A DNA stretch of 64,000 bases from Escherichia phage AV124: sequence record OR352954; one strand, written 5' to 3'. Below, piece after piece: positions 20,928 to 25,910 of the stretch. The notes under the pieces are model-generated. The model was not told where the DNA came from, did no database searches, and saw only the letters and a list, made by a program, of their open reading frames with translations. The position numbers were made by a program, and so were the translations under genes. The stretch's first letter is position 1; each line of letters opens with the position of its first letter.

Positions 20928-21287
20928 ATGAAAGTAACTGGCAAACAAACTGTTGTACAGAACGTGGAAGTAGATATCTCTGATGAAGAGATCATGAATA
21001 TTGTCAAGGCACAAACACCAGACTACCTCGCAGATGTCCTCACCAAAGAACTGCTGAGGAACTTCATCTATAGCTTGCCAGCAGATTTTACTGGTGAGCG
21101 GGCCGTGTGGGAAACACGTAAAAGAGGATATGAACCGTTTCTTGTACTTGTCCATGTAGACGCTTGGTGGGACTACCACAACAATGTTGGTGTGGATGAA
21201 GAAGTCAGACCGCTCACCGAAGAAGAAACGGCAAAATATAATATGATTTGCGGTTTGCGGGACTACATTAAGCATCTGCAAAAATAA
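20928..21287 (+). CDS. hypothetical protein
   Basis: ORF track, 119 aa. Confidence 0.45.
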   Translation: MKVTGKQTVVQNVEVDISDEEIMNIVKAQTPDYLADVLTKELLRNFIYSLPADFTGERAVWETRKRGYEPFLVLVHVDAWWDYHNNVGVDEEVRPLTEEETAKYNMICGLRDYIKHLQK

Positions 21288-21355
21288 TTCAAAAGCCTCT
21301 TGACTTCATGGTTGAGGGGCTTTATTGTTATGGAAGCTAAATAACCTGGGGGGTG

Positions 21356-21523
21356 TATGTTAGAGGCAATCAATTATTTCTTTTTAGTTCTGGCAGCAGT
21401 GGCCTGTGTTTCTTGTGCCTTCGGTGCTGTCTTTTCAAAAGATGAAACACACCGTACGGTGTACGTGCTTTGTGCAGTCATCAACGCCGCTTTTACGGTG
21501 CATCTCTGGAGTATCGCCCTATG
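21356..21523 (+). CDS. small membrane protein (55 aa)
   Basis: ATG 21356, hydrophobic 'FFLVLAAVACVSCAFGAVF'; below the 60-aa track cutoff. Confidence 0.3.
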
Positions 21524-21715
21524 AAGCTTTCACATTTTATTTATGCTGTGTTAGGCCTTATGGCCCTGACCATGCTGACAACGTTGGGGCTTTCATTTAC
21601 AGCAGGTCATGAGCAACAAACAAAAGAAATTTTGGGCGCAGGTTTCGGTATGTTCATGCTTGAATTCTTCCTGCTTCTTTTGGGAGGCGTGATTGTGGAT
21701 ACTTCCGGCTGGTAA
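21520..21715 (+). CDS. small membrane protein (65 aa)
   Basis: ATG 21520 overlapping upstream stop; two hydrophobic segments. Confidence 0.35.
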
Positions 21716-21725
21716 GGAGAAATAA

Positions 21726-21932
21726 ATGCGTGGATTTATGCCTTTGGTGAAACCTTTAGTAATCGTTGGAATAATTGTGGTAGTGGCGCTTTTTATTGTT
21801 GACACAGCAGATACCGTCACTCATAATTGTAAGCCTAACGGTGAGCAACGCCTTGCAAACAGTGCGGATGGCATTGTCGTTGAGAACAAACTGATCTGCG
21901 ACGGTGGTCGCGTGAAGTGGTCTCGCTACTAA
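21726..21932 (+). CDS. small membrane-anchored protein
   Basis: ORF track; 'LVKPLVIVGIIVVVALFIV' TM segment. Confidence 0.35.
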   Translation: MRGFMPLVKPLVIVGIIVVVALFIVDTADTVTHNCKPNGEQRLANSADGIVVENKLICDGGRVKWSRY

Positions 21933-21967
21933 ATCCTGACTAAATAATCTCAAGAGGAGAAAAACAA

Positions 21968-23056
21968 ATGACGATTACTCGCGGCCTTATCTTCGGGAAG
22001 TTTGCACCCCTGACCAACGGGCATATTGAATTCATTCGCCAGGCGGCTTCGCAGGTTAGTGCTCTGTACCTGTTCCTGTCATATGATCAGAAATTCGTTG
22101 ATGCACAACCAGAATGGATTCGTCCAAAGCTGGGGCTTGCTGATCGTTATCGTGACCTGCTGGATGTTATTGCCGATGAGGGACTTGACAACGTGAAGGT
22201 AGACTACGTTGATGAGTCGAATATCCCAGGATACCCTGAAGGCAGTGCTGCCTATGCAAAACTGATCCGTGAAAAGCAACCGTTCGTTAAGTACGATTTT
22301 GCTTTCTCTTCTGAGCCGGAGTATGAGTCTTACTTCAGTGAGTTCTTCCCTGAAGCGAAGCATGTAGTTATCGACGCAGAACGTAAAGCTGTTCCTATCT
22401 CAGCCACGATGATCCGTAATGATCCGTACAACAACTTCTACAACCTAGCGTGGCCTGCACGTAAGCGCTTCATGAAGAAGGTTGCCATCATTGGTGTTGA
22501 GAGTACGGGCAAGACAACCCTGACAAAACATCTGGCGCATACCTTCGGTGCTGGTTGGATTCCTGAGATCGGACGGCTTATCTGTGAGCGTGAATATCAC
22601 TCCAGTGAGTTCGCAATGTCTCGTGAAGACTACCTGCGTATCGCTATGGAGCACCGCCTGAAGGAGATGGAGTTGGCTGGTTGGGGTGATCGTGGGGTTA
22701 TGTTCTCTGACACCACAAACCTGATCACACACTTCTCTGGTGTTTGTGCTGATAAGATCGACTACGCAGACCTGTTGTTCCGGACACTAAGCCGTGAAGA
22801 GAGCTACAACTTCTATGACCTGTTCCTGCTCCTCACACCAGAGGTTCCGTGGGTTGCTGATCCTCTTCGCTTGCAGGATACACCAGAGAAACGTAAAGAA
22901 ACCCATTCTTTGCTTGACACAATGATCAGAGCATCTTACGATACAAGCAAGGTGGTGGTTATCTCCGGCAGTGATTACGAAGAGCGTACTCAGAGAGCTG
23001 AAGAAGCTGTCCGTAAATTGCTGAATATCAAAGGAGAACAAGATGGATCAAACTAA
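21968..23056 (+). CDS. nadR: bifunctional NMN adenylyltransferase / ribosylnicotinamide kinase, NadR-like (no N-terminal HTH domain)
   Basis: NMNAT motif 'GLIFGKFAPLTNGHIEFI' (cf. NadR 'FGKF.PLH.GH'); kinase P-loop 'VAIIGVESTGKTTL'. Confidence 0.8.
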   Translation: MTITRGLIFGKFAPLTNGHIEFIRQAASQVSALYLFLSYDQKFVDAQPEWIRPKLGLADRYRDLLDVIADEGLDNVKVDYVDESNIPGYPEGSAAYAKLIREKQPFVKYDFAFSSEPEYESYFSEFFPEAKHVVIDAERKAVPISATMIRNDPYNNFYNLAWPARKRFMKKVAIIGVESTGKTTLTKHLAHTFGAGWIPEIGRLICEREYHSSEFAMSREDYLRIAMEHRLKEMELAGWGDRGVMFSDTTNLITHFSGVCADKIDYADLLFRTLSREESYNFYDLFLLLTPEVPWVADPLRLQDTPEKRKETHSLLDTMIRASYDTSKVVVISGSDYEERTQRAEEAVRKLLNIKGEQDGSN

Positions 23057-23468
23057 TCTGGCAATTCTTCAGTTCTTGAAAGAGGATTTGGAGAGAACCG
23101 AGGCATGGACTTTCCACTATGTTATTGAGGAGGCCTTAGACCTCAGTCCGATGGTGGTGGACATCTCCCTCACGCAACTGGAGCAGGGTAAGATGATCAC
23201 TCGCTGCCTGTGTGGTTGCAATGGCATTATGATTGCCCCTGGTGGGTATGAGGTGCTTCCAAAGCCTGAAAAGAAAGAGCAGATTCTGGTCTGGAAAACA
23301 GCACAAGGAGATGTTGTCAGGTTGACTCATATGGCAGATGATCATCTCCGTAACGCGATGGTATGGCTTCTGGAGCAGCCCTATTTGAGCGAAGAATACG
23401 AAGGTGTTGGTATAACGACATGGCTCAAGGAGATGTCAATTGAACTGCACAGGAGATTTTCACTATAA
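23043..23468 (+). CDS. hypothetical protein (possible winged-helix N-terminus)
   Basis: ORF track, 141 aa. Confidence 0.35.
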   Translation: MDQTNLAILQFLKEDLERTEAWTFHYVIEEALDLSPMVVDISLTQLEQGKMITRCLCGCNGIMIAPGGYEVLPKPEKKEQILVWKTAQGDVVRLTHMADDHLRNAMVWLLEQPYLSEEYEGVGITTWLKEMSIELHRRFSL

Positions 23469-23662
23469 TGGCGATCAAAGTAATCTCCGAAGGTACTCCG
23501 TTTACGGCAACGTGTAAGAGTTGCAGGTCTGTGGTTGAATACAATTACACGGATACCTATGTATATTCCTACACTGTTGCTCGTGGAATGCGGGTAGGTC
23601 ATGGTGCGTACCGCTGCATCACCTGTCCTGTGTGCTCATCAAGGATCAGGCATAATGGCTAA
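23468..23662 (+). CDS. small zinc-ribbon protein
   Basis: 'CKSCRS' ... 'CITCPVC' Cys pairs. Confidence 0.35.
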   Translation: MAIKVISEGTPFTATCKSCRSVVEYNYTDTYVYSYTVARGMRVGHGAYRCITCPVCSSRIRHNG

Positions 23663-24008
23663 GGTGCTCAACTTCTACCACATTGGTAAAGTGATCCCTG
23701 AAAATGCCGAATACATGGGGCGAGCAATGCCCCATCTAGGCCTGAAGCAATCTAAATTCGCTAACCCATATAAGTTGTCGAAGGATGAGCCTCGTGGAGC
23801 CACCATTGAGCGCTATCGCGTGTGGTTGTGGCAACAGATCCGTTCTGGGAAAATTACTATTCAAGATCTTCTTGACTTGGATGGTAAAGACCTTGTATGC
23901 TTCTGTAAACAGCCGAACAAAGAGGTGGCATGTCATTGTGATGTGATACTTGCGGCAATCGAATGGGCAAAACAGAGGAAGACAAATGGCAATTCATGCA
24001 AAAAGTAA
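23655..24008 (+). CDS. DUF4326-family protein
   Basis: 'YMGRAMP...SKFANPYKL...IERYRVWL...LDGKDLVCFCK...CHCDVIL' matches my recollection of the DUF4326 pattern. Confidence 0.5.
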   Translation: MAKVLNFYHIGKVIPENAEYMGRAMPHLGLKQSKFANPYKLSKDEPRGATIERYRVWLWQQIRSGKITIQDLLDLDGKDLVCFCKQPNKEVACHCDVILAAIEWAKQRKTNGNSCKK

Positions 24009-24222
24009 TGGTCTGCTGATCGGCGGTAAGATCATCGAGGAGACACTGACAGGCTGGGTTTTCCAGGCAATGGATAACAAAGGTACTAATTTTGTGTTCA
24101 AGTCAGATGAGAAGAACCAAGTTTTTGACGGACCGAATGCTGTTGACGAAGCAATGGCTTGGCAAACTAAAGTCCGGGCAGAAATGAAAAATAAAAAGAG
24201 AAAGGGGCGCAAAAATGGCTAA
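23986..24222 (+). CDS. hypothetical protein
   Basis: ATG 23986 with GAGGA SD inside track ORF 23950..24222. Confidence 0.3.
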   Translation: MAIHAKSNGLLIGGKIIEETLTGWVFQAMDNKGTNFVFKSDEKNQVFDGPNAVDEAMAWQTKVRAEMKNKKRKGRKNG

Positions 24223-24475
24223 AGATACATGGGAAGTATTTCAGGATGACGACGAAATAAAGGTCATTGTCTCAGGCTCTCTTGAGGTAGGTGCCGGGTG
24301 GCGATCTTACAGCGACGTGTGTTCAGAGATTAATAACCTTGATGATGCAAAACTCATTGCCGCAGCACCTGAATTGCTTGACGCGGTTCTGGATCTGAAG
24401 TATAAGTTATACGGTAACGGCGCAGCAAGTCCTAAAATCGAGGCACTGTTGAAACGCTTGGAGAGAATTACATGA
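24215..24475 (+). CDS. hypothetical protein
   Basis: ORF track; 'LIAAAPELLDAV' motif common in small phage early proteins. Confidence 0.35.
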   Translation: MAKDTWEVFQDDDEIKVIVSGSLEVGAGWRSYSDVCSEINNLDDAKLIAAAPELLDAVLDLKYKLYGNGAASPKIEALLKRLERIT

Positions 24476-24702
24476 ACAAATACTACTTCGCCTTCGGAAT
24501 GAACCAAGAAACGAAGGATGGTATGTCTCTCGGTAATTACTACGTCTGCATCGAAGCCAAACACCATTACGATGCCAGATTTGAGATGTTCGATGCTCGT
24601 GGCAGTTCTTGGTCTTTTTGCTACACAGAAGAAGAATTTGCTGGACAACCAGAAAAATATGGATTAAAGTCTATTTCGTTAGACGAAGTTCGTATCCGAT
24701 AA
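24472..24702 (+). CDS. hypothetical protein
   Basis: ORF track, 76 aa. Confidence 0.35.
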   Translation: MNKYYFAFGMNQETKDGMSLGNYYVCIEAKHHYDARFEMFDARGSSWSFCYTEEEFAGQPEKYGLKSISLDEVRIR

Positions 24703-24722
24703 ACAATAGGAGAAAAGATTAC

Positions 24723-25424
24723 ATGATGAATCTATACGTAAAAACAACCTGGACAGACTTCTATGGTTGGACAAAACTCGAATACCTTTGGCTTCTAATC
24801 TGTTCTGCATCCATTGCAACGGTCTCTATCGTTACAGGTGGTACGGTGGTGGAGTTTATTTCCTCCGTCACAGGCATCGTCGGTGCGATTCTGGTTGCGA
24901 AAGGTAAACTTTCCAGCTACTATTGGGGCTTCATTGCCACGGTTCTGTATGCATATATCTCTTTCACGTACAAGTTGTACGGTGAGACGATTATGTACAC
25001 CCTGTTGTTCACCCCCATGCAGGTCATTGGCGGGGTGATCTGGGCGCGTAAGTTAACCGTCTCTGCGGATGGTGAGCGTGCGGATGTCATAAAGAAATAT
25101 CTGACCACAAAACAGCGCTGGATTGTTGGTATCGGGACATTGGTGACGATCGGATTATACGCCGAGTTCGTTAGCCTATTGAAAGGAAGTATGCCGGGTC
25201 TAGATTCTGCGACAGCAATCCTGTCAGTTCTAGCAACCTACCTGATGATGGTTCGTTATGCAGAACAATGGCTGATTTGGCTACTGGTGAACACTGTTGC
25301 AATTGTTATGTGGGTACAAGCTACGATTCATCATCAAGGAGCTGGTTCTGCAATTTTGGCTATGTGGGTCACATTCTGGCTCAACTCTCTTTATGGTTGG
25401 TATAAGTGGAGAAAGAATGGCTAG
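24723..25424 (+). CDS. pnuC: nicotinamide riboside transporter PnuC-like
   Basis: ATG 24723 after AGGAG; polytopic membrane protein ~233 aa with PnuC-like C-terminal 'WLNSLYGWYKW'. Confidence 0.7.
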   Translation: MMNLYVKTTWTDFYGWTKLEYLWLLICSASIATVSIVTGGTVVEFISSVTGIVGAILVAKGKLSSYYWGFIATVLYAYISFTYKLYGETIMYTLLFTPMQVIGGVIWARKLTVSADGERADVIKKYLTTKQRWIVGIGTLVTIGLYAEFVSLLKGSMPGLDSATAILSVLATYLMMVRYAEQWLIWLLVNTVAIVMWVQATIHHQGAGSAILAMWVTFWLNSLYGWYKWRKNG

Positions 25425-25538
25425 AAAACTAGTGTACGGGGTGGGCGAGTGATTCAACGCTTTACGGAAGTTCTAGACGGTATACTGGAAGACATTTCAA
25501 ATTTACGTGAAACAACCAATTTTGGAGGGGGGTAATAT

Positions 25539-25910
25539 ATGATTGGATTTTGGGAATGGTTGACCATGCACAACAACTGGGTTCCTGGCGTTATCATGTA
25601 TGCAATGATGTTGCTATGGGCTTTGGTCATCGCTTTCCGTAGTACGTGGAAAGGGTATGTTGTTGCAATCGTCTTGATGGCTGGTGTTGGTGGTACACTG
25701 TTTAACTTCCTCAGCACATACCTTGACGGTTATGGAATGTATCAGCGCCATTATACTACTTGCGCAAAGCCAGAGGCTGTGGTATCATTCTATGTGTTTG
25801 ATGCAAAGAAAGAGCGCTGTTATAAACCTGTTGTTGGATTTGCACCTGTTGATGATAATCAGGTAAAGACTCTGACACCGAAACAAATGGAGACTGGAGA
25901 ATGGCTTTAA
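25539..25910 (+). CDS. membrane protein, unknown function
   Basis: ORF track; 2-3 hydrophobic helices. Confidence 0.4.
   Translation: MIGFWEWLTMHNNWVPGVIMYAMMLLWALVIAFRSTWKGYVVAIVLMAGVGGTLFNFLSTYLDGYGMYQRHYTTCAKPEAVVSFYVFDAKKERCYKPVVGFAPVDDNQVKTLTPKQMETGEWL

Follow-up and report, generated by a model that had tools for sequence, protein, structure and literature searches.

Of all that large lytic phage genomes encode, small membrane proteins are the least understood, and several of them have proved to be exclusion or host-control factors. In Escherichia phage AV124, three small genes that encode such proteins lie just ahead of a nadR-like and a pnuC-like gene, and a sequence-only reading had suggested from this position that they might be functionally linked to NAD+ metabolism. 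Do these three genes serve NAD+ salvage, or do they form a different kind of locus? We analysed one 64,000-nucleotide stretch of this genome (the window). The 5.1 kb around the three ORFs are 92–94% identical to Mydovirus phages of Klebsiella and Proteus (Vequintavirinae, rV5-like myoviruses), including KP12, Mydo, KB57, KpS8 and others.

Three small consecutive ORFs are present on the + strand (Table 1), and each is preceded by an SD-like sequence: GGGGGG at 21348–21353 for ORF1, GGAG at 21508–21511 for ORF2 and a perfect AAGGAG at 21714–21719 for ORF3, which overlaps the ORF2 stop codon. Whereas the extent given earlier for ORF3 was right, including its 68 aa, ORF1 had been placed 1 nt off and ORF2 encodes 64 rather than 65 aa. 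Translational coupling, proposed for the whole set, is borne out for ORF1 and ORF2, as the ATG of ORF2 shares an ATGA (4-nt overlap) with the ORF1 stop codon. ORF2 and ORF3 are instead separated by 10 nt, bridged by the SD-like sequence that overlaps the stop. A longer form of ORF2 starting at a TTG (21470) was rejected because the aligned database homologues start at M[KN]LSHF.

Table 1. Features of the three-gene locus and of the downstream nadR and pnuC genes in the window.
Feature	Coordinates	Strand	Size or position	Description	Match or basis
Terminator-like hairpin	21292..21323	+	closes upstream 119-aa gene (20928-21287)	14-bp hairpin, then UUUAUUGUU	terminator scan
Candidate promoter	21300..21328	+	-35 box inside hairpin	sigma-70-like, TTGACT-17-TATTGT	promoter scan, 9/12 match
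ORF1	21357-21524	+	55 aa	two-helix hairpin membrane protein (predicted)	phrog_29375
ORF2	21521-21715	+	64 aa	two-helix hairpin membrane protein (predicted); near-invariant Glu48 in helix 2	phrog_18454
ORF3	21726-21932	+	68 aa	basic N terminus, variable TM anchor (~residues 10-25), conserved C-terminal domain 31-68	phrog_9531
nadR	21968..23056	+	35 nt downstream of ORF3	NadR-like NMN adenylyltransferase / NR kinase, no HTH	phrog_3462, E 6e-140
pnuC	24723..25424	+	~1.7 kb of small genes after nadR	PnuC-like nicotinamide riboside transporter	phrog_1880, E 5e-75

Each ORF matched its own PHROG family over the whole protein and the whole profile (ORF1, E 5e-39; ORF2, E 7e-40; ORF3, E 1e-37), and all three families are listed as function unknown. 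For ORF3, the profile was matched by 23/23 members of an extended alignment. Lack of conservation in any relative had been set beforehand as one outcome that would refute the observation; tblastn found homologues of ORF1, ORF2 and ORF3 in 33, 29 and 70 phage records, respectively, exclusively in Vequintavirinae-type phages. The 70 ORF3 records extend over Mydo-, Seuna-, Henuna- and Certrevirus as well as Serratia phages. In a collection of 5.8 billion proteins, the ORFs fell into 7, 14 and 19 clusters, and wherever the matched contig was informative it was of phage size (~145 kb) or a phage fragment. Pairwise Nei-Gojobori comparison in the annotated frames with Mydo, VIK251, PVP-SE1, 4MG and GAP31 gave dN/dS values of 0.15–0.22 for ORF1, 0.03–0.21 for ORF2 and 0.13–0.29 for ORF3, compared with 0.07 for nadR. 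Alternative-frame and antisense ORFs were rejected, as the synonymous-biased substitutions fit the annotated frames. Together, the PHROG matches, the conservation and dN/dS values of 0.03–0.29 show that ORF1–3 are real coding genes under purifying selection. Dozens of phage genomes already contain their homologues, deposited under the labels hypothetical or 'putative membrane' protein and grouped in PHROGs, and in the literature on Vequintavirinae we found neither transcriptome nor functional data for these genes. ORF1–3 are uncharacterised members of a familiar class of small phage membrane proteins, and to this extent the original observation is correct but ordinary.

Hydropathy analysis revealed two hydrophobic segments in ORF1, two in ORF2 and one, N-terminal, in ORF3. 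The description of all three proteins as dominated by hydrophobic helices is thus accurate for ORF1 and ORF2, but applies only to the first third of ORF3. Independently, the GenBank record of PVP-SE1 lists two TM segments for the ORF1 homologue gp22 and one for the ORF3 homologue (TMHMM, Phobius). An AlphaFold2 model of ORF2 (pLDDT 85.8) is a helical hairpin with helices at residues 3–27 and 31–62, for which Foldseek found nothing beyond generic hairpins of helices, PsbZ among them, at E > 2. In ORF1 both helices are highly conserved (EAINYFFLVLAAV and CAVINAAFTV); in ORF2 helix 1 is almost invariant, as is, nearly, Glu48 of helix 2. Because the TM helices themselves are conserved, ORF1 and ORF2 may make specific helix-helix contacts within the membrane, which this pattern suggests more than mere anchoring. 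The two hairpin proteins were also compared with each other as possible paralogues, which was rejected (hhalign probability 0.6%).

ORF3 has a different design. Its AlphaFold2 model (pLDDT 84.8) consists of a helix at residues 8–32 followed by strands at 36–46, 49–57 and 63–66. The C-terminal part, HNCKPNGEQRLANSxDGVVVENKLICDGGRVKWSRY, is nearly invariant, whereas the anchor is variable. Selection follows the same division: dN/dS is 0.03–0.18 for the C-terminal domain versus 0.17–0.66 for the N terminus plus TM segment, and pooled pN/pS is 0.11 versus 0.36. The family was widened by a profile search of 1.84 billion representatives, which yielded about a dozen small remote relatives with 26–44% identity, and by tblastn, which added homologues from Hena1, Kashira and CR9. 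Two proteins of >2,600 aa (P0042, P0044) were discarded, their many short-stretch matches being treated as low-complexity artefacts. Throughout the whole family, remote relatives included, C35, Q41, C58 and W65 are invariant, and G39, R42, N45, V52 and G61 nearly so.

The entire ORF3 family also shares a charge pattern, with basic residues before the TM anchor and acidic residues after it. By the positive-inside rule, this pattern should place the C-terminal domain in the periplasm, and ORF3 is therefore probably a type II (N-in, C-out) signal-anchored protein with a periplasmic domain of ~35 aa. Since the invariant cysteines of this presumably periplasmic domain flank the modelled beta hairpin, a disulfide can be expected, and the domain is probably a disulfide-stapled, three-stranded beta meander. 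Its conserved polar face (Q41, R42, N45, E53, N54, K55 and W65) would most likely bind a conserved partner in the envelope. Neither the three ORFs nor the ORF3 family alignment matched Pfam, NCBIfam, PADLOC or PDB sequence profiles; among the PADLOC anti-phage defence profiles, 0 families were hit at E <= 1 by ORF1, ORF2 or ORF3. The best sub-threshold matches (DUF1029, T4SS_pilin and a designed helical repeat) were set aside as noise from the hydrophobic segments. Foldseek with the ORF3 model gave no PDB match at E < 2 and, in BFVD, only members of the family itself. No relative of ORF3 could be detected, either among characterised proteins or among solved folds.

We next consider where the genes lie. 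The first ~29 kb of the window form a + strand block and the rest a - strand block of large ORFs, which we take to be structural genes. ORF1–3 share strand and block with DNA polymerase and nucleotide-metabolism genes. Because they belong to the + strand block, and because DNA polymerase lies in the stretch upstream of this locus in relatives, ORF1–3 are part of the non-structural, early/middle-type portion of the genome. Their neighbours in relatives encode signal-peptide proteins, that is, an envelope-directed neighbourhood.

Immediately upstream, a terminator-like hairpin and a sigma-70-like promoter coincide (Table 1). The hairpin folds as RNA with -21.4 kcal/mol (z -2.2), and the ~40-nt element is nearly invariant in Mydo, VIK251, PVP-SE1, 4MG and GAP31 despite differing flanking genes: in the three Seunaviruses the gene upstream of it has only 37–52% protein identity, and the gene downstream differs. 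Both promoter hexamers are conserved in the 6-way alignment. A search of the 64-kb window at up to 3 mismatches found the element in single copy, and it is the sole TTGACN promoter-in-hairpin composite there, at -18.7 kcal/mol; Rfam returned no family for the whole window. From these features we infer a candidate promoter at 21300–21328, composite with the terminator, and expression of ORF1–3 is predicted to be early. Phages of the rV5 type use sigma-70-like promoters (PMC3606486). In T4-like phages, PeSLs are composite promoter-terminator motifs that likewise combine a terminator hairpin with an embedded early-type promoter (PMC2839356; PMC4122927). Like a PeSL, the element at 21292–21328 is conserved beside variable genes and borders a slot of swapped small genes. 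In contrast to PeSLs, which are present in many copies per genome and recombine with each other, it is single in 64 kb, and the resemblance is one of analogy, not membership. Recombination at the element itself is what the gene-content pattern would suggest.

The position behind an early-type promoter also bears on a possible role in lysis. Together, the three could form a holin, pinholin or antiholin set that times lysis, in which ORF1/ORF2 would be the holin-like hairpin (class II) and ORF3 an antiholin of the RI type facing the periplasm. Sizes and predicted topologies fit these classes (two-TM hairpins of 55–64 aa for ORF1 and ORF2, a signal anchor plus a small domain in the periplasm for ORF3), and Vequintavirinae are without a classical lysis cassette, with holins not firmly identified (PMC7344957). 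The genes lie, however, in an early-type block behind a sigma-70-like promoter, and no ORF matched a holin in Pfam or PHROG, each belonging to a PHROG of unknown function. Among 8 relatives, the flanking several kb contain no annotated endolysin, and the C termini (...WSIAL in ORF1, ...DTSGW in ORF2 and ...KWSRY in ORF3) are without the charged tail typical of holins. Moreover, the holin candidate of Certrevirus lies elsewhere in the genome, overlapping a gene for a SleB-like hydrolase (PMC7344957). We therefore regard a lysis-timing set as highly improbable.

Comparison across relatives showed that the content of the slot between the hairpin and ORF3 changes from group to group. Mydoviruses carry ORF1, ORF2 and ORF3; PVP-SE1 has ORF1 and ORF3, again with an ATGA overlap; 4MG, GAP31 and Ro1 have ORF2 and ORF3; and in a Mydovirus-like IMG/VR contig (L021) an unrelated soluble acidic protein of ~100 aa precedes ORF3. 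ORF3 occurs alone in Henunavirus, Certrevirus-like and Serratia phages and in several metagenomic contigs. Because the content of the slot varies among relatives while ORF3 stays, ORF3 belongs to the backbone of several Vequintavirinae genera, and ORF1 and ORF2 are accessory genes that behave as independent cassettes at a site prone to exchange; the trio is not one module. A recombination joint also separates ORF2 from ORF3. In the window, ORF1 and ORF2 are 96–98% identical to those of all Mydoviruses, and ORF3 shares 93–96% identity with its counterparts in the VIK251/P8734/DP group, as against only 78% with those of Mydo, KP12 and KB57. Against the divergent group, dS is 0.81 for ORF3 versus 0.17 for ORF2. 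The locus should accordingly be described as a conserved backbone gene plus two swappable cassettes, and not as one operon-level unit.

Conservation of this kind could also reflect a target in the host. Regulators of the MgrB/SafA type are small, bitopic proteins that bind a larger membrane protein, namely inner-membrane sensor kinases. By the logic of MgrB/SafA (PhoQ) or of AcrZ, ORF1–3 could be small-protein modulators of a host inner-membrane protein in host takeover, inhibiting or retuning a sensor kinase, transporter, division protein or cell-wall enzyme in favour of phage development. The TM helices of ORF1 and ORF2 are conserved, with polar residues and the acidic Glu48, and ORF3, with its basic N terminus, single TM segment, short and presumably periplasmic part, two invariant Cys and conserved Trp, parallels the MgrB type in overall plan. 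Phages infecting Klebsiella, Salmonella, E. coli and Cronobacter share this ORF3 domain with almost no variation, as would be expected of an Enterobacterales-wide target. On the other hand, we found no sequence or fold relation of the ORFs to such regulators, and close relatives can dispense with ORF1 or ORF2 or have another gene in their place. Unlike MgrB and SafA, ORF3 is encoded by a phage and is modelled with a beta-meander domain, and Pfam gave nothing for it at E <= 1. A modulator of this kind thus seems unlikely to us, although the near-invariance of the ORF3 domain in phages of different hosts would be as compatible with a conserved target in the host as with one in a phage.

We then asked whether comparative data support the link to nadR and pnuC. 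The NadR of the window is 95–97% identical to Mydovirus and Seunavirus NadR, and its PnuC is 84% identical to that of Mydo. In a T5-like phage, the NARP3 module, consisting of a NadR-like and a PnuC-like protein, imports nicotinamide riboside and rebuilds NAD+, thereby defeating Sir2-HerA and DSR1, and the two genes of this T5-like module suffice when co-expressed alone in E. coli (PMC13464706). The window carries both gene types beside ORF1–3; unlike in two-gene NARP3, its nadR and pnuC are not adjacent but split by the intervening small genes. ORF1–3 might then be accessory to a NARP3-type module and, for example, assist in assembling PnuC or in supplying NR in the periplasm. ORF3 lies only 35 nt upstream of nadR in the window, and nadR follows within 0–3 genes in the 10 IMG/VR loci that combine a close ORF3 orthologue with an intact downstream flank, as well as in Hena1, L011 and L013. 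Every close ORF3 orthologue (>=46% identity) for which the downstream flank is covered is two genes or fewer away from nadR. In addition, NadR of the Vequintavirinae type (>=60% identity) is found in ~65 phage records, a number near that of ORF3.

The direct adjacency is not conserved, however. In Mydo, VIK251, PVP-SE1, 4MG, GAP31, Hena1 and a metagenomic relative, one or two genes for signal-peptide proteins stand between ORF3 and nadR; the intervening genes in relatives encode a 105-aa Cys-containing protein and an 82–90-aa coiled-coil protein. The window has lost these genes, and several more small genes that relatives have in this region are missing from it as well. In relatives, nadR and pnuC remain whether ORF1 and ORF2 are there or not, so that the presence of these two ORFs is independent of the module. 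NadR itself is found in 717 phage records, among them T5-like, jumbo, Vibrio and Bacillus phages, far beyond the Vequintavirinae-type phages to which tblastn confines ORF1–3. At the NadR-PnuC locus of the T5-like phage saus132, tblastn found no ORF1–3 homologue, and none is annotated at that of the jumbo Serratia phage BF.

Conversely, the equivalent region of Serratia phage Kashira contains a member of the ORF3 family (E 3e-12), adjoining the same DUF4326 gene, whereas the whole 144.5-kb Kashira genome gave no match to NadR or PnuC better than E 0.2. Kashira carries NAMPT and PRPP synthetase elsewhere in its genome. Likewise, four Certrevirus-like IMG/VR loci with ORF3-like genes have no nadR or pnuC within their 4–5 kb flanks, and Certrevirus CB7 has been described as using NAMPT (PMC7344957). 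The ORFs thus do not accompany NadR/PnuC wherever the module occurs, and the ORF3 family is not confined to genomes that have it. The partner that does accompany NadR-PnuC across lineages is a secreted protein of the PVP-SE1 gp023 type, not ORF1–3. Overall, the suggested functional link to nadR and pnuC is largely contradicted by the comparative data, and among the earlier proposals of toxin, exclusion protein and transporter accessory subunit, the last is the least supported. Because close ORF3 orthologues do sit near nadR, we keep an accessory role in NAD+ salvage as quite improbable rather than assigning it no weight. ORF1–3 should not be annotated as parts of the NAD+ salvage (NARP3) module.

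What, then, do these proteins do? In T4, Imm crosses the membrane several times and Sp is exposed to the periplasm; both are small, early and non-essential, and they provide superinfection immunity or exclusion in a large lytic myovirus. By analogy with this pair, we tentatively read ORF1–3 as early-made, envelope-acting accessory proteins, with superinfection exclusion or a similar protection as the prototype, and give this reading a probability of about 0.4. We favour it because the proteins are very small, phage-restricted, predicted to sit in the inner membrane or face the periplasm, and encoded in the non-structural block just after a conserved candidate promoter of the sigma-70 type, and because ORF1 and ORF2 behave as accessory cassettes amid small neighbours targeted to the envelope. 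Three independent non-structural genes would thus open a sigma-70-type transcription unit within the replication/nucleotide-metabolism block. Anchored N-in, C-out, ORF3 would display its beta domain of ~35 residues in the periplasm, while the ORF1 and ORF2 hairpins would engage partner helices inside the membrane through specific contacts. Made early, all three would work on the infected cell's envelope and shield it from outside attack, as T4 Imm and Sp do. Like these, ORF1–3 are small, apparently inner-membrane or periplasm-facing, accessory and variable among relatives; unlike them, they have no sequence or fold similarity to Imm or Sp, and ORF3 has only 68 aa, with a domain of ~35 aa. Searches of Pfam and NCBIfam gave no match above threshold to T4 Imm or other superinfection-exclusion families, and neither homology nor fold likeness to Imm, Sp, Sie, Cor or another characterised protein was found.

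A more specific version of envelope action would make the ORF3 family (phrog_9531) a new class of effector, in which a membrane-anchored, disulfide-stapled mini-domain of ~35 aa with no known fold relative binds a conserved periplasmic or inner-membrane target. Such an effector might block genome delivery by competing Vequintavirinae or support the supply of NR for NadR-PnuC, with ORF1 and ORF2 as exchangeable intramembrane partners. As a whole, we consider this proposal possible but rather unlikely. ORF3 is a tractable protein in either case, with 68 aa and a well-defined conserved mini-domain, which by our reading would be periplasmic. It is present in therapeutic-candidate phages of Klebsiella, Salmonella and Cronobacter, and if it confers exclusion, this would matter for phage cocktails built from related Vequintavirinae.

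The most interesting by-product of the analysis lies outside the window. The gp023-type secreted protein of PVP-SE1 is absent from the window itself, but it is found together with NadR-PnuC in three unrelated phage lineages.

Comparison of the window with phage Mydo indicates that the region around nadR and pnuC is a trimmed version of the Mydo arrangement. Within 21932-25540, the window has no counterparts of Mydo gp195 (encoding a secreted coiled-coil protein), gp197, gp198, gp201, gp205 and gp206 (encoding a DUF1190 lipoprotein). Whereas nadR and pnuC are adjacent in the T5-like versions of NARP3, the phage NAD+ reconstitution pathway formed by NadR-like and PnuC-like proteins, they are ∼1.7 kb apart in the window, with genes for a zinc-ribbon-like protein and a DUF4326 protein between them. 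Almost every relative has a DUF4326 gene in this region, even where NadR is absent, and in some of them (Hena1 and the loci L011 and L013) zinc-ribbon-like homologues recur beside a gene that is NadR-like or belongs to the ORF3 family.

Coordinates of genes between nadR and pnuC in the window and of secreted Cys proteins in other phages (L003, L019 and L035 are the relatives' loci)
Feature	Coordinates	Position	E value
64-aa Cys4 zinc-ribbon-like protein	23468-23662	between nadR and pnuC	
DUF4326 protein	23655-24005	between nadR and pnuC	3e-18
Secreted Cys protein, PVP-SE1 gp023	L003:4240-4557		
Secreted Cys protein, saus132 gp142	L019:4839-5135		
Secreted Cys protein, Serratia phage BF gp358	L035:3501-3815		

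In three unrelated phage lineages, NadR/PnuC are adjoined by a protein of ∼100 aa with a Sec signal peptide and several cysteines, for which tblastn returned no match in the window. Its gene lies between ORF3 and nadR in Vequintavirinae, directly downstream of pnuC in the T5-like phage saus132 (55% identity) and directly upstream of nadR-pnuC in the jumbo phage BF. The protein is present in 264 phage records, the hosts of which parallel those of enterobacterial-phage NadR; in Edwardsiella phage pEt-SU, its gene is not adjacent to NadR/PnuC. NARP3 is presented as a two-gene system in the portion of its description available (PMC13464706), and the secreted protein is a candidate periplasmic third component.

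Upstream of nadR, a mosaic joint separates ORF2 from ORF3, as judged by comparing window positions 21715-21932 with relatives. ORF1 and ORF2, the two hairpin membrane proteins, share 96-98% identity with all Mydoviruses, whereas ORF3 is 93-96% identical to its counterparts in VIK251/P8734/DP and only 78% identical to those in Mydo, KP12 and KB57. At the nucleotide level, Seunavirus alleles of ORF3 (85-88%) are closer than that of Mydo (77%).

At 21292-21328, ahead of ORF1, lies a composite terminator/promoter hairpin that hardly varies among Mydovirus and Seunavirus phages, whereas the genes flanking it diverge or are replaced. This element is similar in behaviour to PeSL, from which it differs in being single copy within the window. 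In the IMG/VR contig L021 (L021:4629-5001), one unrelated soluble acidic protein takes the place of the ORF1 and ORF2 pair, and its stop codon overlaps the start of ORF3.

A 118-aa fusion ORF (P0047) was observed in Logan contig SRR19576308_52764 (L013:860-1216), with a NadR-like gene three genes downstream. It joins the N-terminal ∼70 residues of the DUF4326 protein, whose window homologue lies at 23655-24005, to an ORF3-type C-domain lacking its TM anchor. Such a fusion could have arisen by deletion, or it could be a chimera created during assembly. If the ORF is real, its Cys domain would be cytoplasmic.

The database labels 'UDP-galactopyranose mutase' both the homologue of the 64-aa ORF2 hairpin in Salmonella phage 40 (P0038) and, in the RefSeq record of Klebsiella phage KNP2 (NC_048647.1, 6400-6755), an ORF2 homologue together with the ORF1 region. 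Because these proteins are so small, the label on ORF1/ORF2 homologues is evidently a mis-annotation.
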